Assembly: GCA_044225365.1 (NCBI GenBank)
Contig: JBGAIQ010000067.1
Coordinates: forward strand, 1 to 28,273
Length of the DNA stretch: 28,273 nucleotides
Reading direction: 5' to 3'
Source: Planctomycetota bacterium
GTDB taxonomy: Bacteria > Planctomycetota > B15-G4 > JADJEK01
The position numbers and the translations under genes were made by a program. The notes under the pieces were generated by a model. The model did not search any database. It was not told the origin of the DNA and saw only the letters and a list, made by a program, of their open reading frames with translations. Positions 4,356 to 21,808 of the stretch are shown in pieces; within the stretch, counting starts at the first letter, position 1; each line of letters opens with the position of its first letter.

Positions 4356-7300
4356 ATGCGCAAACCCAACGACTCGGACACGCATCGGAGGAACAGCTTC
4401 CTCCCCATCGTCGTATTCCTTTCGGCGCTCATCGGCGTCTCGTTCGAAGCCGCTCGCGGCGGAGACGTCGACGCGCGCCACGCGCCCTTCCTGCAGTTCG
4501 AGTCCGGCCCGACCAATTCGCTTCTCCTCACTCGCGACGGTACGCGCCTGCTCGTCCTGAACACGACTGACGATCGCGTCGAGGTCTACCGAATCGCAGG
4601 AACCCCGCTCCCCGGCCAACCCGGTATGGGTGGAAGCATCTCGTCGTCCGCCGGTGGCGTATCCTCGAGCGGCGGCGTGATCGGCAATTCGCCGGCACTT
4701 CCTTCCATCCTCGCGATCGAGTCCTCGATCTTCACGGGGCTCGAGCCCGTCGCGATGGTGGAGCATCCGACGCAGGACGACATCGTCTTCGTTGCGAATC
4801 ACGTGTCGGACAGCGTTTCGGTGGTCGATCTCGCATTGGGAAACGTCATCGCGACGATCCAGGTCGGAGACGAGCCGCAAGGGCTCGCGATCGCCGAAGG
4901 CAAGCTCTTCGTCGCCTGCGCGCGCGCGCCAGCGACACCCCTCGCGCCCGGCGCAACTCTTCCCGGTCCGATCGAGGAGAACGTAGTCGTCGTTGCCCAG
5001 GCCGACCCGCCCTACTCGCTCCTGAAGAACGTCGTGCTCGATGGAATGAAACCGCGAGGCGTCGCCGTCGCGGGCGGAACCGTATACGTCGCGATCCAAA
5101 ACTCGGGGAATCACACGACGCTCCTCGACGAGAACCACACGAAGCCTCTCGGTCTCGAGCAGACGGTGTGGGATGCCTTCGACGGCGGGCCATTCCCGAT
5201 CAATCCCGTGCTCGTGAAGCCCGAGCTCAACGCGCAGAACTTTGCTCGCGGTTGGTACGTTCCGAATGCGGGCCGCATCGTGTTCGACTTCGAATACCCG
5301 AATCTCGTTCACTCGCTCTCGGATCAGGATGTCTTCGCGCTCGACGCCGCGACCGGTTCGCGGTTGCCGTTCCTGGCGACCGGAGTGGGAACCACCCTCT
5401 ACGACATCGCCGTGAACCCGATCACTCAGAAGCTCTGGATCACGAATACGGATGCGCGCAACCGCACGCGCTTCGAGCCGCGTCTCGAGGGATCCGCGAC
5501 GACGAATCGGATCACGCTCGTCGACGCCATCAACGGAACGCATCAGGAGGTCGAACTCACCCCTCCTACGCTCCCCGCGAACGAAGCGCTCCCGACGGCG
5601 ATCACGTTCGGCGCGGGCCCGACTCCGCTCGCCTTCGTGGCCGCTTCCGGAACGGCGTCGGTGCTCGTATTCGATGCCGCGACCGCCGCCTTCCGCAAAC
5701 GAATCGCGACGGGGCCGATTCCGAGCGGCCTCGCGTTCGACTCGAAGCGCTCCCTGTTGTTCGTCCACACGCGCGGCGATGAGTCGATCCGCGCGTACGA
5801 CGGGAAACGATTCGACGCGGTCCTTCCCATCGTCCGGCTCCCGTACGACCCCGAGCCCCCGCACGCGCGCGCGGGACGCATCCACCTCTACGACGCTCGT
5901 AGCTCCTCCGGTCATGGCAACGGATCGCTCGCCTGCGCGAGTTGCCATGTATTCGGCCATGGGGATGGCCTCGCCTGGGATCTCGGAGATCCGGAGGGAG
6001 GTCTCGCGTATTGCTTTCCCGACATCTTGAAGGGTCTCGGCAGTTTCGAGAACGAGCTGGTCGTCGCGCCGACGACGCCCGTGCAGCATCCGTTGAAAGG
6101 ACCGATGGTGACGCAGTCGCTGCGTGGACTCATCGACCCGGACACGAAGGACGACCTCCCGCTGCACTGGCGCGGGGATCGGCGAACGTTCCATCAATTC
6201 AAGAACGCGTTCCGGGCCTTGCTCGGAGGGTCTGGCGTCGCGGAGGCGGACATGCAATCGTTCGCGCGCTTTCTGCGCTCGCTGCGATACGCGCCGAATC
6301 CGTACGGTCCGCGCGATCGCGTGTACACCGGGACCGATGCGGCGGGCGCGGACAAGTTCGGAATGAACCCGTCGTTCAGCGGCAAGGACTACAGCGCTGC
6401 GGTCGGCGTGTCGTGCATCGACTGCCACAACGGGGATTTCTTCGGCAAACACGATTTCACCGGCTCGCGACCGGTATCGAGCGCGGGCAGCTTCACGCAG
6501 ATCTTCCAGACCGCGCAGCTCCGCATGGCGTACGAGAAGCACTCGCCCGAACTCACGGGCTTCGGTCTCCTCCACGACGGCGCGGTCGACGGCGTGCGCG
6601 GCTTCATGGATTTCACGATTCCGAACGGCGGCGGCGCGACGTTCCACAACTTCACGACGCAGGACAAGGATGAGGTCGCCGCGTTCGTCGAGCATTGGGA
6701 TCACGGGCTCTCGCCGCTCGTCGGGGCACAATTCACGCTCGACCCCTCCAACGTCGCGGCCGCGACGAGTTTCCTCGATCTCGCCGAGACCCAGGCGAAG
6801 ACTCCTCTTTCCAACGTCGATCTCGTGCTGAAGGGATATCGCATCGCGCCGGACGGGGCGATCCTCGACCGCGGGGCGCTGTACCAGTGGAACCCGAGTC
6901 AGCAGAAATGGGGATACCAGTTCGACACCGGCGATTTCGTCGATCGCAATGTCGTTCTCCTCGTCGTGCAGGCCGGCATCGCGCGCTTCACCTTCACCTG
7001 CGTACCGCCCGGACTCGGCACACGACTCGGAATCGACCGCGACGAGGACGGAGCGTTCGACTTCGTCGAGCACATGGCAGGACTCGATCCGACACGACCC
7101 GACACGGATGGGGACGGCTACCTCGACGGTTTCGAGCGCGGAATCGGAGCCGACCCGAAGCACGCGGATGCGATTCTCCCCGATTCTGCGCCGCCCACGT
7201 TCGAGTCGCTACGGGCGCTCGAGATCGGCTCCGACATCGCGACGCTGGAAGTGGTGTGCGACGAGCCTGCGAGACTGCAGGTCGATGTCGGGACTCACGC

Positions 7301-7835
7301 CGGGTCCAACGACGTCGCATCTCTTGCAATCGAAGCTCTGCGCCGCCGCCACGATGTCGTGCTCGACGAACTTCCCCCTGGAACGAAACTCTTCGTCACC
7401 GTCACCGCGAAGGACCGGAACGACAACGCGACGACGTCGGCGCTCTCGTTCACTCCTCTGCCTCCGTTCGTCCACATCGATTCGATCGCGCTCTCAAAGA
7501 CCGGAACCGGGCCCTTCGTCGTGACGGCGCAGGTGAAGGTCGTCGACCGCAACGACCAACCGGTTCTCGGTATCCCGCTCGCAGTCTTCTTCGCGGGCGA
7601 CATCGGCAATCAGGCGTGGCAGCGCACCGGAACGACGGGGTCGAACGGCATCGCGACGATCGCGCTCGCCCCCCTCGCGCCATCGGGTTCGAGCGAGATC
7701 GCGGTGAGCGTGGCGTTCGTGGGTTCGATCGATCCCGCGAGTCCGTGGTTCGTGGGCAAGGGCGGGTCGATCCCGAAGTTCTTCTACGACGCGTCCGTCA
7801 ATCGCACGAACTACGCGCGTCTCACCGTGCCGTGA
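4356..7835 (+). CDS. Exported YVTN/YncE beta-propeller + di-heme cytochrome c (CcP/MauG-like) fusion with Ca-binding TSP3-like repeats and C-terminal FN3/Ig-like domains
   Basis: Signal peptide (RRNSFLPIVVFLSALIGVSFEAARG); propeller blades (VFVANHVSDSVSVVD, IQVGDEPQGLAI, LWITN); two CxxCH motifs, CASCH at 5934-5948 and CIDCH at 6414-6428; CcP-like segments TQSLRG, LHWRGDR, LHDG; DRDEDG...DP..PDTDGDGYLDGFE repeat. Confidence 0.85.
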   Translation: MRKPNDSDTHRRNSFLPIVVFLSALIGVSFEAARGGDVDARHAPFLQFESGPTNSLLLTRDGTRLLVLNTTDDRVEVYRIAGTPLPGQPGMGGSISSSAGGVSSSGGVIGNSPALPSILAIESSIFTGLEPVAMVEHPTQDDIVFVANHVSDSVSVVDLALGNVIATIQVGDEPQGLAIAEGKLFVACARAPATPLAPGATLPGPIEENVVVVAQADPPYSLLKNVVLDGMKPRGVAVAGGTVYVAIQNSGNHTTLLDENHTKPLGLEQTVWDAFDGGPFPINPVLVKPELNAQNFARGWYVPNAGRIVFDFEYPNLVHSLSDQDVFALDAATGSRLPFLATGVGTTLYDIAVNPITQKLWITNTDARNRTRFEPRLEGSATTNRITLVDAINGTHQEVELTPPTLPANEALPTAITFGAGPTPLAFVAASGTASVLVFDAATAAFRKRIATGPIPSGLAFDSKRSLLFVHTRGDESIRAYDGKRFDAVLPIVRLPYDPEPPHARAGRIHLYDARSSSGHGNGSLACASCHVFGHGDGLAWDLGDPEGGLAYCFPDILKGLGSFENELVVAPTTPVQHPLKGPMVTQSLRGLIDPDTKDDLPLHWRGDRRTFHQFKNAFRALLGGSGVAEADMQSFARFLRSLRYAPNPYGPRDRVYTGTDAAGADKFGMNPSFSGKDYSAAVGVSCIDCHNGDFFGKHDFTGSRPVSSAGSFTQIFQTAQLRMAYEKHSPELTGFGLLHDGAVDGVRGFMDFTIPNGGGATFHNFTTQDKDEVAAFVEHWDHGLSPLVGAQFTLDPSNVAAATSFLDLAETQAKTPLSNVDLVLKGYRIAPDGAILDRGALYQWNPSQQKWGYQFDTGDFVDRNVVLLVVQAGIARFTFTCVPPGLGTRLGIDRDEDGAFDFVEHMAGLDPTRPDTDGDGYLDGFERGIGADPKHADAILPDSAPPTFESLRALEIGSDIATLEVVCDEPARLQVDVGTHAGSNDVASLAIEALRRRHDVVLDELPPGTKLFVTVTAKDRNDNATTSALSFTPLPPFVHIDSIALSKTGTGPFVVTAQVKVVDRNDQPVLGIPLAVFFAGDIGNQAWQRTGTTGSNGIATIALAPLAPSGSSEIAVSVAFVGSIDPASPWFVGKGGSIPKFFYDASVNRTNYARLTVP

Positions 7836-8020: not shown

Positions 8021-9865
8021 TTGAATTGCCGACTCGTACGGTTCGCACCCTCCCTTTTGTTCTGGTCGTTCTGTTTCATTTCCGGATCTTCGTTCGCCGC
8101 CAACTCGCCTGCGAACCCCGAACCGGCCCTGCCGCCCGGTTTCGCCTGGCCGGATGAATTCGGCGACGGGTTCTTCGGACGTGCGGAAGTCGGTCAGATC
8201 ACCGAGGACCTCGTTCCCGACGTCGTCCTCCTTCGCGGTCCGGTACCCGCTCCCGGCAAGGTCGACGATACGGCGTTCCTCGTGTACGGCCCGTCGACAT
8301 ATCGCGGCGTCATCCCGCTGCCGGGACCGGTTTCCGATTTCGCTATCGTGCACGGGGCCGGGCCCGATGGGCGAGATGCCATCGCTCTCGTCGACGCGTT
8401 CGGACTCTCCCTCGCGACGGTCGAGGACGGCGCGAACGAGTTCACGATCACCTCGCTCGACATGCCGGCATTCGTCGGCGCCCTGCGCGTTCGCACCGCC
8501 GACTACGATCACGATGGCGACTGCGATGTCTTGGGTCTCAGCTTCGACTCGAAGCGTCTCGTCGTCGCGCAGAACCTCGGCAGCGGATTCGTCCTGCTTT
8601 CTTTCGATCTCCCAAAGACGACCGCCGGATTCGACTTCGTGTACGTCGACGGGTCCGACGCGAACTCCACGCGGATCGCGATCCTCGACAAGAATGGACT
8701 CGCGTTCGCACACGCCGATTCGGGAAACCCGTACTTCGTGCTCGATCGCAACTACCGTTCGTCCTTGCCCGGCGGGCCGATCGCGACGCTTCGTGGAAGC
8801 CTGGGCGCGAACGCCAAGGTCTCGTGGATCACGAGCGCTCCCAATCCCGTGAACCAACTTCACCTCGTGTGCAATTCCCTCGGGTACGAGCCGTGGCCGG
8901 TGATGTACGACTCGCAGGGGATCGTCGCGACCGCATGCGGTGATCTCGACGCGGACGGGGACGACGACGCCGTCATGACTCGAACATCGATGGCGGGATT
9001 CCTGATCCATCGCAGTCAGGCATCGAACGGTGGAGTGTCGTTCACCTCGAATCCCGAGTCGCTATCGTCGATCGTTCCGCCGGACGTGCCTTCCGTCCCG
9101 GAGCCGGATCAGCACGCGTGGCCCGTCATCGGGGATCTCGACCACGATGGTGATCGCGACCTGTTCCTGGCCTGCCAAGCCGCGGGTCTCCTCTCGATGA
9201 TCGACGGATCGACGCTGGGGCCGCCGCCGTCGTCGTTCGTCCCGCCGCCCTCGCCTCCCGTTCTCACTTCGAGCGACTTCCGGAACGATCCCGAAGGCGC
9301 CTACTCTCCGAGCAGCACTGGTGATCTTCGACTCGTCTACTCGGTCGACGATTCTCTCGGCAGCGACTTCCGCCTCCAGGTCATCGCCTGGCGTGAGTCC
9401 GCTTACGCTCAGCCCGTCGAGGCGGACGCGACCTTCTCGACGCGAATCAGCCTGCCGAACGGGCAATCGGGACCGCCGATCGCGGAGTGCGTGATCGACA
9501 TCGACGAGACGCCCGCGTTCCCGTTCCCTGCGATCTACTGGATCGAGTCGCGCTACGTCCGCATCGATCCGTCGAACGGTCATGTCGTCGAGAGCTTCCC
9601 TGCGATCGTGTACGCCTACGCCGCCGCGAACGTCTCGCTGCCCGATTCCATTCCTACGGGCCCTTCGATCACGCCGTTGCTCGCCGAGCCCGGCACGGGA
9701 CCGACGCTCCACGTGATCTTCGATTATCCGGGTTTCGGCGCCGGTGCGGTTCAATGCGGCGGGCTGGTGCCGAAGGCGTCGGTTCCGTACTTCCCGCCGG
9801 GACCGAACATCCCGCGGCCCGGTGGGAGTTCGGGATCCGGCTCGGGTGGAAATCCCGGAGGCTGA
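8021..9865 (+). CDS. Exported FG-GAP/VCBS (DxDxDG) repeat protein with Pro-rich linker and C-terminal beta domain
   Basis: TTG start preceded by AGAGGAG; signal peptide ending SFA; ADYDHDGDCDV, GDLDADGDDDA and GDLDHDGDRDL plus degenerate repeats; PPPSSFVPPPSPP linker; Pro then Gly/Ser tail. Confidence 0.85.
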   Translation: MNCRLVRFAPSLLFWSFCFISGSSFAANSPANPEPALPPGFAWPDEFGDGFFGRAEVGQITEDLVPDVVLLRGPVPAPGKVDDTAFLVYGPSTYRGVIPLPGPVSDFAIVHGAGPDGRDAIALVDAFGLSLATVEDGANEFTITSLDMPAFVGALRVRTADYDHDGDCDVLGLSFDSKRLVVAQNLGSGFVLLSFDLPKTTAGFDFVYVDGSDANSTRIAILDKNGLAFAHADSGNPYFVLDRNYRSSLPGGPIATLRGSLGANAKVSWITSAPNPVNQLHLVCNSLGYEPWPVMYDSQGIVATACGDLDADGDDDAVMTRTSMAGFLIHRSQASNGGVSFTSNPESLSSIVPPDVPSVPEPDQHAWPVIGDLDHDGDRDLFLACQAAGLLSMIDGSTLGPPPSSFVPPPSPPVLTSSDFRNDPEGAYSPSSTGDLRLVYSVDDSLGSDFRLQVIAWRESAYAQPVEADATFSTRISLPNGQSGPPIAECVIDIDETPAFPFPAIYWIESRYVRIDPSNGHVVESFPAIVYAYAAANVSLPDSIPTGPSITPLLAEPGTGPTLHVIFDYPGFGAGAVQCGGLVPKASVPYFPPGPNIPRPGGSSGSGSGGNPGG

Positions 9866-12634
9866 TCAGCTCGATCGCCGGCGCCTACGAGTGCGCAGCG
9901 TCCAGCCGACCGCGAGCAAGACCGCGCCGCTCGAAAGGACCGTCACCGTGGTCCACGAGCGGTGCGGTTCGCGTTCACGCACCGAGCTACGAAAGGTCAA
10001 GGGACGATGCCCGAGGCCGTCGAGACGGAATCGCGCCGCGACGCGACGACGCTCTTGCGCGTCGAACGAATCGCAGTCGTCGAGCAACCACGAGCGCGCC
10101 CGCGCGAGCGCCTCACTCGGCGAGTCTTGGAGCCGCATCCGCTCGTGCATCGTGAGGAGGAGGGCGGCGGTCGGGCCTGCGCGCACGTCGCTCCCTGCCG
10201 AAACGACCGCCCTCGCGCCGCCGAGCAGGAATGCACCGCTGAGATCCGCAGCGCCTGCATCGCCGCGGCGGAGCGGGCCGACGCCGGAGCGACAAGCCGC
10301 AAGCACGACGAGATCCGCCGCGGGCAGCGTTTCGGCGATATCGCAGGTCAGCGCGAACGCGGGATGACCGCCGGACGGAGCGAGCACGAGCCGCGCGGGC
10401 CGGGGATCGGATGGATCGAGGAAACCGTGCGTGAAGAACTGAAGCGTCACGGGCGGAATCGAGAGAGCAGCCCGCAATCCGTCGAGAGTCGCGCCGTCGC
10501 CGTCGAGGACGAGTGCGTCCCCGTAGAGATCCGAGAACTCGGTCACCCGAGCATCGGCGGCAGAGAGCGGCGCGAAGACGGGGTCGCCCGAATCATGCGA
10601 ATCGTGAGGATCGTGCGACGGGGGCGGCGTCGGCGCCGCGACGAGTAGGAGGTCTCGCCCCCGCTTCGGCTCGGTGGCACGCGCGCGGCGCACGAGCCAC
10701 GAAAGGCTGGGAACTCGGCAGAGCGCTTTTTTCGCCCCGAACATCTCGCCGCTCGGGAGTCGCGCGGCCTCGATGGCCGGAGCGCCGAACGATTCGAGCC
10801 CGCAGACCGTGACGAACCGCGACGCTTCGAGAACGGGCACGACCTCGCTCGGAACCAACAACTCGAAGAGCGCGCGGCCCGCGTCGCGATCGTCCTGCCC
10901 CGAGTCCAACGCATCGTCGAGCGCCGCCGCCGCGTCGCGAAGCCTCGAGATCCCCGCTCGATCGAATCGCGACACGCGATCGTGAGTGACGACGAAGAGC
11001 TGCGTCGACTCCGGCGACGGCAGCCACGCGAGCAGCACCTCTCCCGGTTCGAGAACGGCGGAGCGCAGGTCCTCGAGCGAGGCCGGCACTCCGCCACCGA
11101 GCCGCGAGCGGGCGTCGATGGCGAAGACGAGATCGAGCGCACGCTCGTCTCCCCCGCCGCCCTCATTCAACTCCGCTTCCGCGCGAATCGCCTCCACGAT
11201 CAACTCGCAGCGACTCGCGAAGTGGAAGAAGCCCAGCCCTGCCGGGATTCGCGGGGCGGCGTCCCACTCCGAGAGCACCTCCTTCACCGCGGTCCGGAGT
11301 CCGACGGTCGCCGTGTGGAGTCGATCGCCCTTTCCCGTCGACGGATCATGTCTCTCGAGATCCGCCGCGAGAGCGCACCGCTGCGCCTCGAGAGTTCCCA
11401 TTGAAGCCTGTCCCGCCGCGTCGAGAAGGCCGCGCGCCGCGTCGAGATGTCCGCGAGCCGACGCGATCTCGTTCGCGAGGATGGCCACCCGCGCTGCCGC
11501 GAACCGCGCGAGGATGCGATCCTCCGCGGTGAGGACGTCGCCTCGCTCGACCCATTGGATCGCCACTTCCGCCCGCCGCCTCGCCTCGGGCAAGCGCTGT
11601 CGATCGTCGATGGCGGCGCGGGCGGAGGCCTGCGCGGCGCGGACGTCGAGAGCCGCGATCGCGCCGATTCCGAGAGCGGCGAGTCCTTGGTCTCCTGCGG
11701 CGTCCGCTTTGGTCGAGTCGATGAGTTTCAGAGCCGAGCGATCGTCCTCGCGTGCCAGCGCCAAATGGATGCGGTGCAGGATCGAAGCAAATCTCGTTTC
11801 GGGCGGTTGCGACGCGTCCGCGAGTCGTCGCTCGAGATCGAACATCGGCGCAGCGAGATCCGCACGACCGAGGTCGAGGAAGACTTGTCCGCGTTCCCCC
11901 GCGATCTCGCAGCGGGTCGTCGAATGAAGGTCGATCGGATCGACCAGCGCGCGATCCAGGAGCGCTGCTTCCGCGAGATCGAGCGACGCGAGTGCGCCGC
12001 GGAAATCGCCCTTGTCACGCTCGAGGCTCGCGAGTTCGGCTCTCAGGATCGGGCCGACGCGGCGAGCCGTCCCACACACCGGCAATTCCTCGAGGAGGAT
12101 CGAAAGGGCTTCGTCCACCCGACCGCCGCGAGCTCGCAGGCGCACTCGTGGAAGCGTCACGCTTGCGCGCAGCTCGGGATCGGCTTCGCTCCAATGCTTC
12201 AACATCGTCGCCGCGAGATCCAATCGCGTGAGCGCAACCTCGGGAGCGACGAAGTCCGCGAGTCGGATCGCACCGGCCGCATACGTCACGATCGCTTCGA
12301 AATCGCTCGAAGCCCCGCTCTCGACGATCGAAGAACAATCGCGTAGGAGCGCTTCGAGTTCGTCGATCGCATGGGCCCGCTGATCCACGTCCGCGGAATC
12401 GAGCGCGCCGTAGATCGACCCGAATCGTTCCCGAAGACTCGGAGGCTCTCGGAATGTCGCCCATGAAGGAGCGGCGAACGCTCCCGCGATCGTGAGGAGC
12501 GCCGCGATCAGTGTTGCGCGACGACGACGTGCGCGCTCGACTTCGCGACCTCGATGTTCGTCGCGTCGAGCACGCGCACCTCCCAGCGAAATCGGCCGGG
12601 CAGCTTCGCGATGTCGGCAGGTTCGAGGATCCAA
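9866..12634 (-). CDS. CHAT-domain (caspase-like clan CD) protease with TPR-like helical region, probable signal peptide and C-terminal TM anchor
   Basis: Catalytic dyad motifs LQFFTHG (His codon 10427-10429) and VVLAACRSG (Cys codon 10292-10294); LSGAFLLGGARAVV; SPSEALARAR; Ala/Leu-rich helical repeats; hydrophobic LIAALLTIAGAFAAPSWA near the N-terminus and VTVLSSGAVLLAVGWTL-RTRRRRR at the C-terminus. True start uncertain (TTG 12634 or CTG 12511). Confidence 0.9.
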   Translation of the reverse strand: MDPRTCRHREAARPISLGGARARRDEHRGREVERARRRRATLIAALLTIAGAFAAPSWATFREPPSLRERFGSIYGALDSADVDQRAHAIDELEALLRDCSSIVESGASSDFEAIVTYAAGAIRLADFVAPEVALTRLDLAATMLKHWSEADPELRASVTLPRVRLRARGGRVDEALSILLEELPVCGTARRVGPILRAELASLERDKGDFRGALASLDLAEAALLDRALVDPIDLHSTTRCEIAGERGQVFLDLGRADLAAPMFDLERRLADASQPPETRFASILHRIHLALAREDDRSALKLIDSTKADAAGDQGLAALGIGAIAALDVRAAQASARAAIDDRQRLPEARRRAEVAIQWVERGDVLTAEDRILARFAAARVAILANEIASARGHLDAARGLLDAAGQASMGTLEAQRCALAADLERHDPSTGKGDRLHTATVGLRTAVKEVLSEWDAAPRIPAGLGFFHFASRCELIVEAIRAEAELNEGGGGDERALDLVFAIDARSRLGGGVPASLEDLRSAVLEPGEVLLAWLPSPESTQLFVVTHDRVSRFDRAGISRLRDAAAALDDALDSGQDDRDAGRALFELLVPSEVVPVLEASRFVTVCGLESFGAPAIEAARLPSGEMFGAKKALCRVPSLSWLVRRARATEPKRGRDLLLVAAPTPPPSHDPHDSHDSGDPVFAPLSAADARVTEFSDLYGDALVLDGDGATLDGLRAALSIPPVTLQFFTHGFLDPSDPRPARLVLAPSGGHPAFALTCDIAETLPAADLVVLAACRSGVGPLRRGDAGAADLSGAFLLGGARAVVSAGSDVRAGPTAALLLTMHERMRLQDSPSEALARARSWLLDDCDSFDAQERRRVAARFRLDGLGHRPLTFRSSVREREPHRSWTTVTVLSSGAVLLAVGWTLRTRRRRRSS

Positions 12635-13185
12635 CGAGGCTCCTGGAGAAACGGGCTCTCGAGGATCGGGACCCGCGTCGTACCGAGCTCATCATAAACG
12701 CGCACGACGAACGAACCGGCGCTCGGCAATTCCGCTTCGAACGAGAACTGCGTGACGCTCGTGACCTCGCCCGTGGGCTCCAGTCTCCAGTCCGTCGCGC
12801 CACCGAGAGTCGTGCCCGACTCCGGCCGATCGGGTCGCATCGCCCGGAATGCGATTCCGATCGTCGCGAGGACGAGGATCGCCGCGGCGACCCGAACGAT
12901 TCGGGAGATCGGCACGGGGTGCGGGCGACTTCGTCGTCCGGCAGCAAGATCGTCACCCGGAACGATCTTCCTGCCCGAGGATTCCCCCGAAGGAAATGCG
13001 CGACGTGTTCCCGCGCGCTCCAGGTTTCCTGCCGTTTCGAGGGTGGCTTCGAGGCGTCGCAGATCCGCGAGCGCCGCCTGACACTCGGTGCAGGCGTCGA
13101 TCTTCTGCTCGATCTCGGCAGCGAGCGTTTCGCCCGAAAGACGCATGACGAGCCAGTCTTCGTGACTCGAATCGTGCGCACTCAC
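12508..13185 (-). CDS. Probable transmembrane anti-sigma factor (degenerate zf-HC2/ZAS, one TM, extracytoplasmic beta domain)
   Basis: GTG at 13185 overlaps the sigma stop (GTGA); EIEQKIDACTECQAAL CxxC motif; TM IVRVAAAILVLATIGIAF; C-terminal beta-rich domain (FVVRVYD...FRWEVRVLD). The ORF-track start at 13521 lies inside the sigma gene. Confidence 0.8.
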   Translation of the reverse strand: MSAHDSSHEDWLVMRLSGETLAAEIEQKIDACTECQAALADLRRLEATLETAGNLERAGTRRAFPSGESSGRKIVPGDDLAAGRRSRPHPVPISRIVRVAAAILVLATIGIAFRAMRPDRPESGTTLGGATDWRLEPTGEVTSVTQFSFEAELPSAGSFVVRVYDELGTTRVPILESPFLQEPRWILEPADIAKLPGRFRWEVRVLDATNIEVAKSSAHVVVAQH

Positions 13186-13802
13186 GACGCACCCGCCGTG
13201 GCGAGCTCGCCGCCTTGGAATCGCTCGCGCAGCTTCAGCAGTGCGCGGTAATACGTCGTCTTCGCGGTGTTCGAGGAGATCGCGAGCTTCGCCCCGATCT
13301 CCTCGAACGTGAGCATCTCGAAATGCTTGAGCCGAATCACGCGCTCGCTCTCCCACGGCAGTTCCTGGAGCAGGCGAAGTGCCCGCTCGATCGCGAAGAC
13401 GTCCGGCGTCGACCCGGGATCGGCGCTCGCCGCATCGACGGAATCGGGGTCGAGCGCTGGCCGACGGCGCTGGCGGCGCAGGAAGGTGAGGATCTCGAGC
13501 TGGCAGATTCGATACACCCAACTCTCGAGGGTCGCTCTTCCCTCGAACGTCGGGAGCTTCTGCCAGACGAGGAGCATTACGTCCTGACCCACGTCGTCGA
13601 GATCGGACGCCCCCAAGGGTCGACCGAGTTGCTCGTTCTGGGCCGACAGGATGCGTGGCACACAGGACATGCGGTCGAGGATCTGTTCCATCGCGGGTCG
13701 CTCGCCTGCGGAGGCCGCACGCGCGAGCGCCAAGTCGCCCGGTGCGATCACTTCCGCTCCGGGCATTGGCGTCTCGAATGGACCGGACGGTTTCACCTGC
13801 AT
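13182..13802 (-). CDS. ECF-type RNA polymerase sigma factor
   Basis: Region 2 DLDDVGQDVMLLVWQKLPTFEGRATLESWVYRI; region 4 LPWESERVIRLKHFEMLTFEEIGAKLAISSNTAKTTYYRAL. Alternative start ATG 13766. Confidence 0.93.
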   Translation of the reverse strand: MQVKPSGPFETPMPGAEVIAPGDLALARAASAGERPAMEQILDRMSCVPRILSAQNEQLGRPLGASDLDDVGQDVMLLVWQKLPTFEGRATLESWVYRICQLEILTFLRRQRRRPALDPDSVDAASADPGSTPDVFAIERALRLLQELPWESERVIRLKHFEMLTFEEIGAKLAISSNTAKTTYYRALLKLRERFQGGELATAGAS

Positions 13803-13884: not shown

Positions 13885-14364
13885 CTACAAGGAAAGCTCC
13901 ATCTCCCCGGAGCGATGCGCGAAGCCCGCATTGGAATACACGGGAGCACCGGCCTCGGTCGCGTGCAGACGCAACCGCCCGAGACCGAGCGATCGAGCCT
14001 TCGCGAGCGAAGCGGACACGAGTGCGCCTGCCACGCCGTTACGACGCCAGGCGGGCATGGTGTAGACGTTCAGCAGGTAGCCTTCTGCCCGCGCCGTGAG
14101 CAGCGGCGAGGGCAATCGCGGGTAGATGAGCAGCGCGAGCGAACCGATCGCGATCGCGTCGCGATTCTCGGCGAGCCAGGCGATGCATTGCCCACGCTCG
14201 ATCGCTTCCGAGAAGGCCTCACTCGAAGCCGCCTCGAAGAGTGCGGTCGCCTCTACCGGGTACTTCCCGAGTTCCCGGAACAATGCGCCACGCAGTTCCG
14301 TGAAGGTGCGCGCGTCGGCGGGCGTTGCGACGCGGATCGAGAACGACGAGGCGGAGGGGAGCAT
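13885..14364 (-). CDS. GNAT family N-acetyltransferase
   Basis: IRVATPADA; GYLLNVYTMPAWRRNGVAGAL (acetyl-CoA binding motif A); LRLHATEAGAPVYSNAGF. Confidence 0.92.
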   Translation of the reverse strand: MLPSASSFSIRVATPADARTFTELRGALFRELGKYPVEATALFEAASSEAFSEAIERGQCIAWLAENRDAIAIGSLALLIYPRLPSPLLTARAEGYLLNVYTMPAWRRNGVAGALVSASLAKARSLGLGRLRLHATEAGAPVYSNAGFAHRSGEMELSL

Positions 14365-14582: not shown

Positions 14583-15407
14583 TCAGTTTCCGCCGGGCTG
14601 CTTCTGCGAGCCGCCCGTGCCGGGCTTCGCAGCTCCACCGCCCTGGCCATTGTTTCCAAAGCCGCCACCGAATCCGCCGGGCCCGCCGCCACCACCACCA
14701 CGACCGCCGCGACCGCCGCCGCCGAAGGGATTGCCGTAGCTCTCTTCGTACTTGGTGATCTGCTCGTTGGTGAGATAACGGGCGAGGTCGTTCTTGGTCT
14801 CGGTTCGCAGCGTGTCCCACTGCGACTTCATCGAAGCGAAGTCCGGCGGGTTGCCGTTGTTGTTCTGCATCTGATCGCGCATCGCGTCGCGCTTCGCCTG
14901 CTCGTCGGTGAGCGTCTTGCGCATTTCCGTCTGCTGGAACGCGTTCAGATTCAGGTCCTTCGCGATCTGCGTGAAGCGCTGCTCGAAGCGTTCGGCATCG
15001 CGCTTCTTGCGATCCTCCTCACGCTTCTGCTCTTCCTTGGCCTTTACGTCGGCGATCACGGTCTCGACCTGCTGGCGAAGACCGTCCGGAACCTTGTTCG
15101 GCTCGCGGAGCGACTCCGCGAGCTGCCGCAGTTCCGGCGTGAGGTCGGCGGCCGGTGCCTTCGCGGCGACTTCCTCACGTTGCGGTGAGGCGGTCACCAC
15201 GGGACTCTGCTCCAGCATCTTCACGCGCTGCAGAAGGTCCTCATTGATGCTCTTCAGTGTCGACAGTTCGGAGCGGAGATCGACCACGCTCGGGTCGTTG
15301 CTCGCCACGCTCGACTCGTGCGTGGAGCCGAGTCCGGCAGCGAGGTAGCCGCCGACACTGCCCGCGACGAGCGCCGCAATGGCGCTGAACAAGATCTGTG
15401 CTTTCAT
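14583..15407 (-). CDS. Exported or membrane-anchored coiled-coil protein with LTxxQ-like motifs and Gly-rich (RGG/FGG) tail
   Basis: Hydrophobic N-terminus ILFSAIAALVAGSVGGYLAAGL; charged helices; LNLNAFQQ and YLTNEQ; tail GGGGRGGRGGGGGGPGGFGGGFG; strongly biased codon usage. Confidence 0.8.
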   Translation of the reverse strand: MKAQILFSAIAALVAGSVGGYLAAGLGSTHESSVASNDPSVVDLRSELSTLKSINEDLLQRVKMLEQSPVVTASPQREEVAAKAPAADLTPELRQLAESLREPNKVPDGLRQQVETVIADVKAKEEQKREEDRKKRDAERFEQRFTQIAKDLNLNAFQQTEMRKTLTDEQAKRDAMRDQMQNNNGNPPDFASMKSQWDTLRTETKNDLARYLTNEQITKYEESYGNPFGGGGRGGRGGGGGGPGGFGGGFGNNGQGGGAAKPGTGGSQKQPGGN

Positions 15408-15415
15408 GGAATCAC

Positions 15416-16423
15416 TCAGCTCGCGAAATGGGTGAGGACTTCTTCGGGAACCTTGACCTCGACGGCGCCGGTCTTCGAGATCGCGTACGTCGACTTGCGC
15501 TTCATGTCGATGTGTCGGTCCTCGAGATCCATCGACATCTGCGTGTCGAGGACGATCGATTCGACCGTACCGTCGGCCGCAACGACCATTTCGAACAGAC
15601 CGGTCGCCTTGCGCTCCGGACCCGCGTCGTCACCGTCACGGCGGCGGCCACCCATCTGGGTGAGCGCGAGCGCCGCGGCCTCGGTGAGCTTGCCCTTGAT
15701 GATGGACTTGCCGTCCTTCGTCTCCATCGTGGCTTCGGCGATCTTGCCGTCGAAGTCCTTCGCGAGCGCGCTCGGCGTGCGCAACGACGTGAGGCCCATG
15801 AGGCCACCCATCATGCCGCCCGGGCCGCGACCACCGCGCCCCCCGCCACCGCCCGCCGCGCCGCCGGCACCCGCGCCTTCGCCTGCCTTCGGCGGCGCCG
15901 CGCCGCCGCCGGCACCGGCCTTGGGCGCGCCACCCGCGCCGTCCGCACCCTTGGCGCCGCCGCCTTCACCGCCTGCGCCGCCCTGACCACCGGGACCGCC
16001 CGGTCCGCCGGGACCTCGACCGCCGCGACTGCGGTCGAGCAGTTCCCACGCGCCCTCGGCGTTCTTGTGGACGATCTTGCCGTCCTGAACGTAGGCCTCG
16101 GTGTCGCCCTGCTTCACATGCATCGGAACGCCACTCTGGAATTCGACGTGCGTCGTCTGGGGCGGACGCGGAGCGCCGCCGCCGGCGCCACCGCCACCAT
16201 CGCCACCGCGGCCGCCGCCGAAGCCGCCGCTCATCTCCGTCGTGAGGTCGAACATGTAGCTCTTCGCATCCGCGAGCTTCTTGCAGGCCGCGGCGAGCGC
16301 CGCCTTGGTCTCGGGAGCGATCGTGGGCGCGGCCTGAGCAGCGGGCGCCGGCGCCGCGGGCTTCGCGGCCGTGTCCTGGAACGGGGAGGCCAAAAGGAGG
16401 CAGGCGAAGACGAACGAACTCAT
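15416..16423 (-). CDS. Exported hypothetical protein, possible LolA/LppX-like beta fold interrupted by Gly-rich inserts
   Basis: Signal peptide MSSFVFACLLLASPFQ; SD AGAAGGA; ATGA overlap with upstream gene; beta-strand pattern KLADAKSYMFDLTTE...YVQDGKIVHK...FEMVVAADGTVESI...VEVKVPEE. The fold call is inference. Confidence 0.78.
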   Translation of the reverse strand: MSSFVFACLLLASPFQDTAAKPAAPAPAAQAAPTIAPETKAALAAACKKLADAKSYMFDLTTEMSGGFGGGRGGDGGGGAGGGAPRPPQTTHVEFQSGVPMHVKQGDTEAYVQDGKIVHKNAEGAWELLDRSRGGRGPGGPGGPGGQGGAGGEGGGAKGADGAGGAPKAGAGGGAAPPKAGEGAGAGGAAGGGGGRGGRGPGGMMGGLMGLTSLRTPSALAKDFDGKIAEATMETKDGKSIIKGKLTEAAALALTQMGGRRRDGDDAGPERKATGLFEMVVAADGTVESIVLDTQMSMDLEDRHIDMKRKSTYAISKTGAVEVKVPEEVLTHFAS

Positions 16424-17208
16424 GGGTTTTCCTTCTCGTCGTTGGATTCGGTCATCCGACCCCCACGCGGACCACGGCGATCGAACGAGAGTCGTTCGGC
16501 ATGGAACCGGTCGAGCGTGGGCTTGTCGGCGATCGTGGATAGATTGGCTTCGAGCTGATCACGGAGTTTCGTGAGCTCGGTCATGGGATTCGGCGCGTTC
16601 GGGTCGGCCTTTGCCGTTTCGGAACCCTTCGCGCACCCTGGCCCGCCGCTCGCGGCAGAACTGGCCGGACCGGTGAAGGGCGCGAACGATGCGAACACCT
16701 TCTGCTTGTCGCTCTCGTAGTCGGAGAGCAGCGTTTCGACCCGCTTCATCGTTGCGGCATCGAACTGCGCATTCTTCTTGAACCAGGCGACGTTGGATGC
16801 GACGCGCTCGCGGCGATGTCGCTCGAACATCTGCTCCGTCAGTTCCTTCATCTTGGCGCGCTGCTCGTCCGTGAGGATCGCGAGCAGGTCGCTGCGCGAC
16901 TTGTCGCGGATCTCGTGCATCGCGTCCTCGTGTTCACGCATCGCGACCGAAGCGGCGTCGAGGATCTTCGAGACTTGCTCGCGCTGTTCGTCGGTGAGGC
17001 CGAGATCGGTCACTAGGTGGCCGATCGAACCGAAGAGCGGACCTTCGAAACGATGCCCGTGGTCGCGATCTCCCCAGCCGATTCCGCGAGGCGTCGACTG
17101 CGAGTTCGGATTGGAGGGAGGCGAACTGGTCGCGAAGATCCGCGACGATTCCCAGCCGATCCCGAAGACGAGCGCGGCGAGCGCGCCGAGCCAGAGTGCG
17201 GATCTCAT
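16420..17208 (-). CDS. Periplasmic Spy/CpxP/CnrX-like LTxxQ helical protein
   Basis: ATG 17208 with GGAGG SD and ATGA overlap; signal/TM MRSALWLGALAALVFGIGW; two LTDEQ motifs (DLGLTDEQREQV, AILTDEQRAKM). Confidence 0.82.
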   Translation of the reverse strand: MRSALWLGALAALVFGIGWESSRIFATSSPPSNPNSQSTPRGIGWGDRDHGHRFEGPLFGSIGHLVTDLGLTDEQREQVSKILDAASVAMREHEDAMHEIRDKSRSDLLAILTDEQRAKMKELTEQMFERHRRERVASNVAWFKKNAQFDAATMKRVETLLSDYESDKQKVFASFAPFTGPASSAASGGPGCAKGSETAKADPNAPNPMTELTKLRDQLEANLSTIADKPTLDRFHAERLSFDRRGPRGGRMTESNDEKENP

Positions 17209-17573
17209 TCCGGGACCTCCACATTGAAGAGGTCGGCGACCAGGCGGTCCGGAGTGGCGCTCGCCGCGTTCTCCGTGTCGCTCGAATCGACGGCGAAGAG
17301 CGACTGGACGACGTCGTCGTCGCCCGCTCCGAACGTTGCGGTCTTGCCGCGATGTGCCGCGACGACGAGTGATACGAGTAGGCCCGCCGCGACGACCGTC
17401 GCATTGCGCAACCGACGGGAACCGATCTCGGCGTTCACGTCCCGCGGCGACCGGGAACCGATGCGAGCGAGCACCGCGCCGACATCGACGCTCGATGCGG
17501 ACGCACTCCGATCGAGAACGCCGCGCACCAGCGCGTCGATTTCGATCTCTGCGGATTCGCGATCGTCGTTCAC
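17205..17573 (-). CDS. Small single-pass membrane protein, probable anti-sigma factor
   Basis: GTG 17573 overlaps the sigma stop (GTGA); 122 aa; acidic N-terminal helix EIEIDALVRGVL; TM ATVVAAGLLVSLVVAA; lies directly downstream of an ECF gene. Confidence 0.65.
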   Translation of the reverse strand: MNDDRESAEIEIDALVRGVLDRSASASSVDVGAVLARIGSRSPRDVNAEIGSRRLRNATVVAAGLLVSLVVAAHRGKTATFGAGDDDVVQSLFAVDSSDTENAASATPDRLVADLFNVEVPE

Positions 17574-18277
17574 GATGGGATCCTCGATGCCTGCGAGACT
17601 CTCGGTTCGTCCGGTCCTCCGGGTCCACCCGGGCCGCTCTCTTTCGTATCGTCGCTCCTCGTACCCGACCATTTCCTTCCCGGCGGAGCGGGGCCCGAAT
17701 GGTCGGGTCCCGGACCGGAGGGACGGACGGTCGCTCTTTCCGACCTTCCAAGCTCTTCCAGTTGTTTCAATTGATCCATCAGGCGCCCGCGCGCCCGGTG
17801 GATCCACGTCGCAACCGTGCCCGGCGGGCAGGAGAGCGACGCGGCGATGTCTTCGTAGCGGAAGCCCTCGACGTGCAGCAGGAACGCCGCTCGTTCGCGG
17901 GGTGGCAACGCCTTGAGGGCGCGCCGTACGTCGTCCGCGACTTCCGCGTCTCCGGCTCCGAGATCGGTCGTTGCGAGATCGCCAGGTGAGAAAGTCTCCC
18001 TCACGAGTCGCCGCAACCGATTCTTCGCACTCATCGCCTCGCGCACGGCGATCTTGAACATCCAGGTCTTGAAGCTCGCCCGGAACTCGAAACTCTCGAG
18101 CCGCCGGTACACGTTCCACCAGACCTCTTGCGCCACGTCTTCGGCCAGATGGCGATCCATCACGAGACCGGAGACGAGCCGCAGCAGCGCGCGATGATGA
18201 CGCTTCACGACCTCGTCGAAACGGGAAGGAGCCCCCGCCAGGACCGCCCGGATCGCGGGCGCGTCGGGATCTTCCAC
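17570..18277 (-). CDS. ECF-type RNA polymerase sigma factor with Pro/Gly-rich C-terminal extension
   Basis: Region 2 LAEDVAQEVWWNVYRRLESFEFRASFKTWMFKIA; region 4 LPPRERAAFLLHVEGFRYEDIAASLSCPPGTVATWIHRAR. Confidence 0.93.
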   Translation of the reverse strand: MEDPDAPAIRAVLAGAPSRFDEVVKRHHRALLRLVSGLVMDRHLAEDVAQEVWWNVYRRLESFEFRASFKTWMFKIAVREAMSAKNRLRRLVRETFSPGDLATTDLGAGDAEVADDVRRALKALPPRERAAFLLHVEGFRYEDIAASLSCPPGTVATWIHRARGRLMDQLKQLEELGRSERATVRPSGPGPDHSGPAPPGRKWSGTRSDDTKESGPGGPGGPDEPRVSQASRIPS

Positions 18278-19516: not shown

Positions 19517-21619
19517 TCAGCCGTCCTTCTTCTTGGCGCCGCCCTGGATCTCTACGACGAGTTCGTGCGCGCCGTAGATCTTCTCGAGGGCCTCGATGAT
19601 CCCGCCGCAGTGCACCGACAGCGAGCGGTCCGCCCCATTCGCGTAGACGAGGTCGTTCGCGAGGCTCTGGACGTTGCCGTCGAACACGAGGCCCACGATC
19701 TCACCCGCGCGATTCAGCGTCGGGCTTCCCGAGTTGCCGCCCGTGATGTCGCAGGTGTGCACGAAATCGAGCGGCGTGCTGAGATCGAGATCCTTCTCGT
19801 GCGCGAGCACGCTCTTCGGCAGGTGGAACGGCGGCTTGCCATCGAACGCGTGGAAGCGCTCGAACAGGCCATAGAACGTCGTCTTCCACGGCACGAGCGT
19901 GGTGTCCTCGGAGTAACCGCGCACGGTTCCGTACGCGAGACGCAATGTGAACGTCGCGTCGGGATAGACCGTGTTGCCGTAGATCTGGAAGCGCGCTTGC
20001 GCGATCTTTCCGGCCGCGTCGGAGGTGACGGCGCTGGCCTCGTCCTGCTTCTTGATCAGCTCGCGCAGCATCGGATCGACCTTGCGCGCGAGGACGATGA
20101 GAGGATCCTCGCACTTGTCGACCGCCGCTTTGCCGCCGTCGACGAGCGCCTTGCGGAACTCGGGGTCCATCAGCTTCGTTCCAGCGACGATCCGCTTCGC
20201 GACCGCCGCGGGCGAGTCGCCGCCGAGCGCGGCCTGGACGAACCCGTCGTCCGAGCCGAGGTTCTCCGCCGCGAGTTCGAAACCGGTGCGGAGCATCGTC
20301 TCTTCGAGGCCGGGGTAGATCGGCGCGGTCGAAAAGAGATCGAGCCGAGTCGAGTCGAGACTGGAATCGCGATACTGCGGCAGACGTTCGCCGTTCGGCT
20401 TCGTGATCTCGTTGACGAGTCGAACGATCGACAATGCGTGACCCGCGAGCGCGCCCTGCATGCGGCGGAACGCGCGCTGCTGGTCGCTCATGGCGTTGTC
20501 GCGCTGCACCTTCTCGATGACCTCGAAGGCGTCTCCGACCGACTTGCTCAGCTTCTCGTTCGCCTGGATCGTGGTGCGCAGCTCCTGCTCGGACTGTTTC
20601 TTGTGAGTCATCAACTCGGGATCGCGCAAGCCGACGAGTTCACCGGTATAGGCCTTGCGCGAGTTCTCGATCCCGAAGAGGGCTTCTGCCGCTTGACGGC
20701 GCGCCTCCTCGCTCGTCCGCCCGAACTCGTTGAGCGCATCGGAGAGACGCGTGAGGATCGCGAGCGACCGCGGACGGCCGACATCGCGCAGATACTCGAC
20801 CTGGGCGTAGGTGCGAAGGCGTTCCGTCGAGCCGGGATGTCCCGAAGTGAAGACGAGATCGCCTTCCTTCAGGCCGTTCGAATTCCACTTCAGGAAGTTC
20901 GGCGTCGCCGCCGGCTTGCCGTCCTCGTACACGCGGAAGAGCGCGAAATCGAGGTTGTAGCGCGGGTACGTGAAGTTGTCGGGATCGCCGCCGAAGTAGC
21001 CGACCGCGACCTCGGGCGCGAACGCGAGTCGGACGTCGGTGTATTGCTTGTACTGGTAGAGCCAGTACTCGCCGCCGCGATAGAGCGCAACGACGTTGCT
21101 GCGCAGGCCGTTCTGCTTGCGCGCGTCGTTCTCGATGCGGCTCGTCGCCGCGCGGCGCGCCGCCGCGGACTGCTCGGGTGTCATCCCGTCCTTCACCGCG
21201 GACTTCACCTGCTCGGTGACGTCGGCCATCGAGACGAGGACGTTGAGCTCGAGATCGGGGCACTTCAATTCGTCGGCCTGCGTCTTCGCATGGAAGCCGT
21301 TGTCGAGGAAGTCCGAGACGTCGCTCGACAGCTTGTGGATCGATTCCGATGCCACGTGATGATTCGTGAGCACGAGTCCGTTGCCCGAGATGAAGGAGCC
21401 CGAACCGCCAGAGTTGAAGCGGACGGACGACAGGCGCACGTGGTCGAGCCACTCCTGCGTCAGGTCGAAGCCGTACTCGTCCTTCAGCTTCTTCACCGGC
21501 GGGTTGTGGAACGTCCACATCCCTTCATCGCCGAGTGCGACGCACGAGATCCCGAACACGCACAACGTGGCGAGCTTCACCGTGATCGATGCGAAAGGCG
21601 AACGGGCGGCGGTCTTCAT
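19517..21619 (-). CDS. S46-family dipeptidyl peptidase (DPP7/DAP BII-like), exported
   Basis: ATG 21619 with AGGAG SD; signal peptide then DEGMW; TNHHV (His); YPRYNLDF (Asp); DITGGNSGSP (Ser); GLVFDGN. The ORF-track extension to 22321 is antisense to the cyclophilin gene. Confidence 0.95.
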   Translation of the reverse strand: MKTAARSPFASITVKLATLCVFGISCVALGDEGMWTFHNPPVKKLKDEYGFDLTQEWLDHVRLSSVRFNSGGSGSFISGNGLVLTNHHVASESIHKLSSDVSDFLDNGFHAKTQADELKCPDLELNVLVSMADVTEQVKSAVKDGMTPEQSAAARRAATSRIENDARKQNGLRSNVVALYRGGEYWLYQYKQYTDVRLAFAPEVAVGYFGGDPDNFTYPRYNLDFALFRVYEDGKPAATPNFLKWNSNGLKEGDLVFTSGHPGSTERLRTYAQVEYLRDVGRPRSLAILTRLSDALNEFGRTSEEARRQAAEALFGIENSRKAYTGELVGLRDPELMTHKKQSEQELRTTIQANEKLSKSVGDAFEVIEKVQRDNAMSDQQRAFRRMQGALAGHALSIVRLVNEITKPNGERLPQYRDSSLDSTRLDLFSTAPIYPGLEETMLRTGFELAAENLGSDDGFVQAALGGDSPAAVAKRIVAGTKLMDPEFRKALVDGGKAAVDKCEDPLIVLARKVDPMLRELIKKQDEASAVTSDAAGKIAQARFQIYGNTVYPDATFTLRLAYGTVRGYSEDTTLVPWKTTFYGLFERFHAFDGKPPFHLPKSVLAHEKDLDLSTPLDFVHTCDITGGNSGSPTLNRAGEIVGLVFDGNVQSLANDLVYANGADRSLSVHCGGIIEALEKIYGAHELVVEIQGGAKKKDG

Positions 21620-21808
21620 GCGGCGACTCCTGCGGAAGCGAGGGAACCGAGCAGAATACCGATTTGCGCTGCGATCGTTGGGACTTCGCGGTGCGAAACC
21701 GTGCGCTTTTTCGATTGATCGCGGACGCGAATTGCCGTTGCATCGCGCGAAATACCGTTGCCTGCGGCCGACGCCATCGACACGCAGTAGGAATCCGAGG
21801 ACACGCGC

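Follow-up and report, generated by a model that had tools for sequence, protein, structure and literature searches.

A conserved four-gene envelope cassette of Planctomycetota as a split variant of the DdvA type of sigma factor, anti-sigma factor and TPR-CHAT protease

Classical proteolysis of anti-sigma factors is represented by RseA with DegS and RseP, by RsiW with PrsW, and by cell-surface signalling with Prc. In craspase, a protease built from tetratricopeptide repeats (TPR) and a CHAT domain, Csx29, reportedly works with Csx30 and CASP-sigma in the cytoplasm as part of a type III-E CRISPR system, and is said to be RNA-activated through Cas7-11. A TPR-CHAT domain is also part of DdvA, which acts with DdvS in Myxococcus xanthus: this single-pass anti-sigma factor combines a three-helix domain that binds zinc with a TPR-CHAT part in the periplasm, seen by cryo-electron microscopy (Protein Data Bank (PDB) 8rot and 8rw5), and is degraded by RseP once its periplasmic part has been removed (PMC11506125). 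In the model of its authors, which is unproven, the membrane-proximal linker is clipped in trans within a dimer by the CHAT domain, after which RseP acts; DdvS controls a CBASS-CRISPR island, and DdvA-like proteins are reported only from Myxococcota and one Comamonas (PMC11506125). CHAT genes have likewise been described, together with carboxypeptidase and subtilase genes, near sigma factors of extracytoplasmic function (ECF) group ECF54, in contexts described as lacking an anti-sigma factor (PMC8999054). Here we describe a locus in a 28,273-nucleotide stretch of DNA from a Planctomycetota bacterium (assembly GCA_044225365.1, contig JBGAIQ010000067.1, positions 1 to 28,273; the whole stretch is hereafter called the window), in which an ECF sigma factor, a membrane anti-sigma factor and a TPR-CHAT protein are encoded by separate genes. 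Most cautiously put, the locus is a conserved envelope cassette of four genes and a variant of the DdvA type in split form.

Three overlapping genes occupy positions 9866-13802 of the minus strand in the order ECF sigma factor, anti-sigma factor and TPR-CHAT protein. The sigma stop and the anti-sigma start (GTG 13185) overlap as GTGA, and these two genes are predicted to be co-transcribed. An initial annotation, made from the sequence alone, had described this overlapping and co-oriented trio, and all of the features that it listed are present in the sequence. Its gene set was incomplete: a fourth conserved gene, for an FG-GAP propeller protein, was overlooked, although it is found convergent with the CHAT gene in 49 of 54 loci. 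In the window, the stops of these two convergent genes abut. G+C content is even over the whole window, at about 64-70%. The features of the cassette are as follows.

13182-13802, minus strand: ECF (group 4) sigma factor, 206 residues, from matches to Pfam and TIGR02937.
12508-13185, minus strand: predicted single-pass anti-sigma factor, 225 residues, from an AlphaFold2 (AF2) model with a predicted local distance difference test (pLDDT) score of 84.
12997-13170, minus strand: cytoplasmic anti-sigma domain, residues 6-63, three helices, with H4, H8, C32 and C35, from the AF2 model.
12838-12906, minus strand: transmembrane (TM) helix of the anti-sigma factor, residues 94-116, from the AF2 model and the hydrophobic run IVRVAAAILVLATIGIAF.
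12802-12807, minus strand: juxtamembrane Leu127-Gly128, predicted scissile site, from conservation and the co-fold.
12511-12789, minus strand: predicted FN3-like beta-sandwich ectodomain of the anti-sigma factor, residues 133-225, from the AF2 model and structure comparison.
9866-12634, minus strand: TPR-CHAT caspase-like protease, 922 residues counted from TTG 12634, from the Pfam CHAT match.
12458-12634, minus strand: residues 1-59 of the CHAT protein (start region with its signal-like peptide), with a 127-nucleotide overlap with the 3' end of the anti-sigma gene.
10070-10771, minus strand: CHAT protease domain, residues 622-855, from Pfam, with His736 at 10427-10429 and Cys781 at 10292-10294.
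9869-9955, minus strand: C-terminal TM helix of the CHAT protein, residues 894-913, with the tail RTRRRRRSS, from the sequence (helix 892-921 in the model).
8021-9865, plus strand: secreted FG-GAP/VCBS beta-propeller protein, 614 residues, from Pfam FG-GAP_3.

The first gene is an ECF sigma factor, as initially annotated: Pfam Sigma70_r2 (residues 66-114), Sigma70_r4_2 (residues 139-191), r4 and Sigma70_ECF all match above their cut-offs, TIGR02937 is matched at 59.8 bits (cut-off 42.9), and the nearest solved structures are Escherichia coli RpoE and similar sigma factors. The anti-sigma protein matches no Pfam or NCBIfam family, zf-HC2 of Pfam included. Its profile matches the zinc anti-sigma factor RslA (3hug_B, E = 3.6e-4) and, weakly, RsiW, and when 1.84 billion representatives (clustered at 50% identity) were scanned in full, 397 proved to be relatives at E ≤ 1e-3, nearly every one close to 225 residues long. 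In the AF2 model, helices at residues 6-16, 23-31 and 33-63 are followed by a disordered stretch, the TM helix, a short linker and a beta-sandwich at residues 139-222, whose strands have a pLDDT above 90. These parts agree with the CxxC motif (C32-x2-C35), TM helix and extracytoplasmic domain first noticed in the sequence, and the layout is that of class I (zinc-type) anti-sigma factors, in which a three- to four-helix N-terminal domain precedes a TM helix. The sandwich is predicted to be FN3-like, a common fold without a specific relative: VIA-align places it on the FN3 domain 9bfp_A with Z = 8.5 and a root-mean-square deviation of 2.5 Å over 81 residues, many other FN3 domains come next, and Foldseek returned weak FN3/CopC-type matches (E ~1e-3).

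Among the 60 closest representatives of the anti-sigma factor, H4, H8, C32, C35, L127, W185, P196 and W201 are each retained in at least 90%. Of the canonical H-x3-C-x2-C zinc motif, the C32-x2-C35 part is present and position 28 is Lys; H4 and H8 are conserved instead among these close relatives. Across 60 genome-derived homologues (L057-L116), C32 is present in 19 and C35 in 20, a shortfall that may in part reflect an alignment cut, and zinc binding is probably not a property of the whole family. Leu127 and Gly128 are each kept in 49 of these 60 homologues.

The recurrence of the gene set was surveyed through the anti-sigma factor. Its profile matches 135 of the 401 genomes of the phylum at E ≤ 1e-5, many of the matches covering the N-terminal domain only. 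Sixty loci were picked by the anti-sigma factor alone among the matches listed, the match being required to reach the ectodomain; a partial match in G416 and fragments of genes already taken were excluded, and 6.4-6.9 kb was examined around each locus, less at contig ends. The loci come from 22 genomes and 9 families of the phylum, two of them from the window's own genome, and their counts are not independent, given paralogy among loci of the same genome and kinship among the genomes. An ECF sigma gene lies upstream of the anti-sigma gene in 58 of the 60 loci, the other two being one cut by the contig end and one without a sigma gene, and this adjacency is the ground for the putative pairing of the anti-sigma factor with its sigma factor. 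A TPR-CHAT gene follows directly downstream on the same strand in 54 loci and in most of them overlaps the anti-sigma gene. As 54 of the 60 loci, all selected by the anti-sigma factor alone, contain the trio, its gene order and overlap are far beyond chance, and the neighbourhood survey that had been put forward as a check on the trio found it conserved.

The cassette is also multiplied within genomes. At least seven anti-sigma candidates are found in each of three genomes and one genome has 21 CHAT matches, which suggests many input specificities; the anti-sigma family is large, with several copies per genome, in a phylum rich in unexplained ECF sigma factors. The window's own genome holds exactly three cassettes of sigma, anti-sigma, CHAT and FG-GAP genes. 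Its 18 copies of PSD1, compared with none in 14 control genomes, agree with its placement in Planctomycetota. Two further CHAT-family genes of this genome (G000 C34:241120-244773 and C71:43607-47161, in frames of more than 1100 residues) have no sigma, anti-sigma or FG-GAP gene within 6 kb, and a sixth Pfam CHAT match, on C89, falls below the family profile.

The CHAT protein matches Pfam CHAT (PF12770) over residues 622-855 with E = 6.6e-23. The His/Cys dyad, described as intact in the initial annotation, consists of H736 and C781, which are invariant in all 54 aligned family members and align with the HG and AAC motifs of DdvA. An AF2 model (pLDDT 90, predicted template modelling score 0.86) comprises an N-terminal helix, a TPR-like array at residues 67-507, the caspase-like domain and a final helix at residues 892-921. 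Foldseek ranks DdvA first for this model (8rot_A, E = 1.3e-12), followed by Csx29, craspase and separase, while VIA-align gives Z = 26.8 for the craspase TPR-CHAT, 25.6 for separase and 22.8 for DdvA, the last with the highest identity (19%). DdvA is also the sole sequence-level CHAT match in the PDB (8rot_B, E = 3.6e-11). No close relatives of the CHAT protein were confirmed in named genomes by tblastn among 167 pattern matches.

Counted from TTG 12634, which lies 127 nucleotides inside the anti-sigma gene and has AGGAG upstream with a 5-nucleotide spacer, the CHAT protein has an N-terminus of RRRR followed by ATLIAALLTIAGAFAAPSWA. Its hydrophobic (h-) region, A40-A55, is 16 residues long, is followed by SWA/TF and begins exactly at the anti-sigma stop. 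The C-terminus consists of WTTVTVLSSGAVLLAVGWTL and the tail RTRRRRRSS. Both the signal-peptide-like N-terminus and the C-terminal TM helix with its Arg tail, as initially annotated, are therefore in the sequence, the former with the qualification that it exists only if translation begins at TTG 12634. A basic-plus-hydrophobic segment located between 35 residues ahead of the anti-sigma stop and 45 residues past it, scored by a crude hydropathy rule, is found in 50 of the 54 homologous loci; the test is crude, and the segment clearly enriched. Sites of the A-x-A or AQE type terminate many of these segments. At the C-terminus, a TM helix followed by at least two Arg or Lys residues is present in 35 of the 54 family members and in five of six database homologues. 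Inspection by eye for a PEP-CTERM or other sorting signal at the CHAT C-terminus yielded only a Trp-rich helix start before the TM helix and no conserved motif.

A natural fusion bears on the topology as well. P0071 (935 residues) comprises a helical N-terminus, a TM helix, a linker that contains PLG and so retains the Leu-Gly pair, an FN3-like domain and TPR-CHAT, in this order, with no second TM helix and no signal peptide; Pfam CHAT matches residues 651-917, and the CHAT family profile covers residues 222-934 with E = 8e-84. A word-index search for longer fused relatives of the anti-sigma factor returned none at E ≤ 1e-5, which is weak evidence by that method. From the conserved signal-like segment, the positive-inside tail, fusion P0071 and the periplasmic TPR-CHAT of DdvA, we infer an extracytoplasmic protease domain, which would be held at the inner membrane next to the anti-sigma ectodomain. 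The extracytoplasmic placement first put forward for the CHAT domain is in this way supported in silico. Public calls of the CHAT protein and of its four closest database homologues (840-864 residues) begin downstream of the signal-like segment, likely due to the overlap of the true start with the preceding gene; public annotation would mislabel the whole CHAT family as cytoplasmic or tail-anchored.

The fourth gene emerged from clustering of open reading frames (ORFs) over 23 wider loci, where one family adjoins the CHAT gene on the opposite strand in 13. With a family profile, a homologue is found at the CHAT 3' end in a convergent position in the 49 loci mentioned above, on the same strand in one and not at all in four, and the gap to the CHAT gene is mostly -100 to +130 nucleotides, being larger in three loci. 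The protein matches Pfam FG-GAP_3 at 28.4 bits (cut-off 26.9), and the family profile matches CRTAC1 (9etn_A, E = 7.9e-9) and, weakly, integrin alpha. Members have signal-like N-termini. A DxDxDxD motif, in keeping with the Ca-binding DxDxDG-type loops of FG-GAP/integrin-alpha-like propellers, lies at residues 372-378, with D372, D374, D376 and D378 nearly invariant, and the disordered, acidic and Pro-rich tail (residues ~575-614; 9740-9865, plus strand) carries a loose G-G-x-[IV]-x3-[IVL]-P-x-F motif with an invariant P600, a candidate short peptide for the TPR array or the protease. An atlas search with this protein gave only generic FG-GAP clusters, all with scores below 0.9. The window's own genome encodes 52 FG-GAP-type ORFs, the three best of which (1e-172, 1e-171 and 4e-50) are those beside its three cassettes. 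This conserved partner provides a lead to the signal.

Co-folding of CHAT residues 60-890 with anti-sigma residues 117-225, each with a custom-built alignment, gave a score of 0.71 (runs of 0.69, 0.71 and 0.77), against 0.00 for the best of three controls. In the benchmark, 58 of 80 solved complexes attained the mark, as did 2 of 110 mismatched pairs. The runs have at least 86% of contacts in common and the pLDDT of the partner is at least 79. The predicted interface has two patches. In the first, CHAT residues 257-263 and 291-300 face ectodomain loops 152-158 and 205-214, which joins the conserved LGxxDxAA motif of the CHAT protein to the conserved ectodomain loops P154-G157 and D207-N210. 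This motif is the single strongly conserved one of the TPR part (G256, which is invariant, D259 and A261), and the conserved points of the extracytoplasmic part of the anti-sigma factor are L127, G128, P154, G157 and D207. In the second patch, CHAT residues 734-739, 779-782 and 816-822 face linker residues 122-132, with the pairs 736:127 and 736:128; the expected error is 2.1-2.5 Å where linker residues 126-128 touch H736 and CHAT residues 816-819. Conservation on the CHAT side of the interface, catalytic residues included, is 0.451 versus 0.363 for the rest, a value reached by 14 of 10000 random sets. The structure prediction that had been suggested for CHAT with the anti-sigma ectodomain thus passed its controls and placed the conserved linker Leu-Gly at the His/Cys dyad; it supports binding of the CHAT protein to the ectodomain.

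We read the cassette as an envelope signalling system, a split form of DdvA in which the CHAT protein would act as site-1 protease on the anti-sigma factor, and give this reading a probability of about one half. The TPR part would dock on the FN3-like ectodomain and so bring the juxtamembrane Leu127-Gly128 into the CHAT active site. Upon a signal, sensed perhaps via the TPR array or the FG-GAP partner, CHAT would cut at Leu127-Gly128 (site 1), leaving a stub of about 11 periplasmic residues that an RseP-type site-2 protease would remove, setting the sigma factor free. The FG-GAP protein may be a co-sensor or the main output, and activation of TPR-CHAT by a ligand, as initially supposed, is a guess. 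An M50 site-2 protease is encoded in the same genome: PF02163 is matched above its cut-off, with an insert dividing the best match (C66) in the way known from RseP-like proteins.

Several observations weigh against this reading. The public gene call P0002 (840 residues) starts at GTG 12388 and lacks the signal-like segment, and the rule used to detect that segment is also passed by 113 of 436 interior 80-residue tiles (26%) taken as a control. The C-terminal anchor is absent from 19 of the 54 CHAT proteins, which end just after the CHAT domain. Six of the 60 anti-sigma loci have no adjacent CHAT gene, with unrelated genes downstream. The co-fold figure is the confidence of a model and not a measurement, conservation on the anti-sigma side of the interface (0.407 versus 0.420 for the rest) is reached by 5887 of 10000 random sets, and the modelled linker in the active site would be expected of an inhibitory pseudo-substrate no less than of a substrate. 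Counts of -35/-10 dyads in the upstream regions of 57 sigma and 24 FG-GAP genes (3 of the latter being loci represented twice) are not or barely above those in shuffled sequences, and no shared promoter motif was found there. The precedent for linker clipping in DdvA is itself a proposal of its authors (PMC11506125).

A more elaborate version of the site-1 reading, improbable as a whole, is a three-protein periplasmic switch, in which the FG-GAP protein would sense an outside ligand and its acidic [IV]PxF tail would engage the TPR array, unlocking the protease to cut Leu127-Gly128; whole cassettes, whose number reaches at least seven in a genome, would have been amplified and have co-diverged as matched receptors. 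If true, this would be the first caspase-family site-1 protease to act in trans on an anti-sigma factor, with separase/securin-like control outside the cytoplasm, and Planctomycetota would have their own form of cell-surface signalling.

The main rival to CHAT as site-1 protease, which we consider unlikely, keeps the complex and reverses its sense. The linker and ectodomain of the anti-sigma factor would silence CHAT as a pseudo-substrate, or CHAT would shield the anti-sigma factor in the manner of RseB on RseA; the protease would have its true substrates elsewhere in the periplasm, the FG-GAP partner or a protein of an invader for example, and the sigma factor would be released by another site-1 protease or by loss of the shield. 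The predicted interface and the linker in the active site do not discriminate substrate from inhibitor, and the FG-GAP protein, conserved and exported with a conserved tail motif, is a possible substrate. Separase, a structural relative of the CHAT protein at Z = 25.6, is held by a pseudo-substrate, as the DdvA source also notes (PMC11506125). Against inhibition stands the position of the Leu-Gly pair, about 11 residues from the membrane, where a cut gives a good site-2 substrate; the fused forms P0071 and DdvA make most sense if a cut frees a bulky domain, and the cassette has no second conserved gene for a dedicated protease.

Quite unlikely, in our view, is a reading in which CHAT and the FG-GAP protein are envelope proteins and merely targets of the sigma factor, and the anti-sigma factor is inactivated by DegS/Prc-type proteases or by redox attack on a zinc site. 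Genes beside ECF sigma genes are often their targets, and context alone cannot separate regulators from targets, as authors caution (PMC7826278). GAAC occurs upstream of 18 of 21 FG-GAP genes versus a shuffle mean of 9.9 and maximum of 15, a weak enrichment and a weak lead that such a reading could claim, as it could the zinc-ligand-like H/H/C/C residues of close anti-sigma relatives. The overlap of the CHAT and anti-sigma genes in most loci and the natural fusion P0071 speak for a closer bond between the two proteins, as do the co-fold, which passes its controls, and the conserved motifs that meet at its interface; redox sensing cannot be general, since the Cys ligands are lost in most distant members (C32 in 19 of 60). 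A sigma-70 promoter scan of the region gave no sites, and terminator-like sites, 3 versus 4.0 expected, are not above chance. Where a GNAT acetyltransferase gene ends, shortly upstream of the sigma gene, a terminator-like hairpin with a T-rich tail (13896-13913, minus strand) gives a hint of independent transcription of the sigma operon.

Finally, a cytoplasmic, tail-anchored CHAT protein that starts at GTG 12388 and cuts the cytoplasmic part of the anti-sigma factor, as Csx29 cuts Csx30, would agree with the public call, with the four closest homologues that start without a signal peptide and with the craspase TPR-CHAT as the match of highest VIA-align Z (26.8), and is nonetheless very improbable given the in-frame signal-like segment at the same spot in 50 of 54 loci, the AGGAG before TTG 12634, the Arg-rich tail after the last TM helix, which fits a cytoplasmic C-terminus and hence an outside domain, the position of TPR-CHAT after the ectodomain in P0071, and the periplasmic domain of DdvA (PMC11506125).

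The remaining genes of the window are varied. A 1159-residue protein with weak Big_1 and TSP3 matches is encoded at 4356-7835 (plus strand); homologues of it, variously oriented, occur close to the cassette in 5 of the 23 wider loci, and its gene may be an accessory or a target. Three tandem genes at 14583-17751 (minus strand) encode exported-looking proteins with long Gly-rich runs GGGRGGRGGGGG, one of which has a weak LTXXQ match; these three proteins gave no other family match and no PADLOC match. A peptidase S46, a RecD2-type helicase and an RsgA GTPase, encoded at 19517-22321, 898-3132 and 2-901, respectively (all minus strand), are ordinary neighbours, of which the helicase has only 29-47% relatives, from many phyla and thus uninformative as to the taxon, and a cyclophilin and a GDSL lipase lie farther along the window. 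PADLOC found no match among the 9 proteins around the cassette.

Among described systems, classical anti-sigma proteolysis has in common with the reading of CHAT as site-1 protease a single-pass anti-sigma factor that is cut outside the membrane at site 1 and then by an M50 protease at site 2. It differs in that the site-1 protease here would be a CHAT enzyme from the same operon, docked through its TPR part, and not a shared serine or metallo-protease. The ECF54 contexts resemble the locus in the conserved association between an ECF sigma factor and a CHAT gene, for which proteolytic control was proposed from context alone, yet they are described without an anti-sigma factor, whereas a membrane anti-sigma factor is central here. 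Literature searches returned no description of the split cassette, though such contexts may be listed in table S7 of the DdvA paper or among supplementary descriptions of the ECF groups; the words 'CHAT' and 'caspase' are absent from the main text of Casas-Pastor 2021.

Craspase is alike in tying a TPR-CHAT protein (VIA-align Z of 26.2-26.8) to the release of an ECF-like sigma factor by cutting the binding partner of that sigma factor. Csx30 is unrelated to the anti-sigma factor of the cassette, and here both the protease and the predicted target site are extracytoplasmic. No Cas-related families were found among the large ORFs of the window, nor was the combination of Cas7-11/gRAMP and Csx30 that defines craspase. 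The proposal that the system is independent of CRISPR accords with the absence of CRISPR and defence genes among the proteins of the window.

The likeness to DdvA/DdvS is broader, as it extends to the ECF sigma factor, the single-pass anti-sigma factor with a small cytoplasmic zinc-type helical domain and the separase/craspase-like TPR-CHAT with its His/Cys dyad, and the co-fold suggests the same logic of linker cleavage. DdvA is a single 991-residue chain for which self-cleavage in a dimer is proposed, whereas the anti-sigma factor (225 residues, with its FN3-like ectodomain) and the protease are separate here: the anti-sigma domain and TM helix on the one hand and TPR-CHAT on the other are encoded by different genes in different frames and not on one polypeptide, and likewise in the 54 loci. 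A signal-like peptide and, in many members, a C-terminal anchor belong to the protease itself, which is accompanied by a convergent FG-GAP gene. DdvS controls a defence island, whereas no defence gene was seen in the surroundings of the cassette. The view of the initial annotation that no experimental characterisation is known has to be narrowed, since DdvA/DdvS is a fused equivalent with a solved TPR-CHAT for which the site-1 idea had already been proposed; it stands in so far as cleavage is unproven there too (PMC11506125). For DdvA, the only TPR-CHAT anti-sigma factor known to have been studied, the site-1 idea could not be put to the test, with substrate and enzyme joined in a single chain and the signal not known (PMC11506125). 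In the split cassette, enzyme and substrate are separate and both a precise site and a docking surface are predicted, and the same idea is therefore easily testable.

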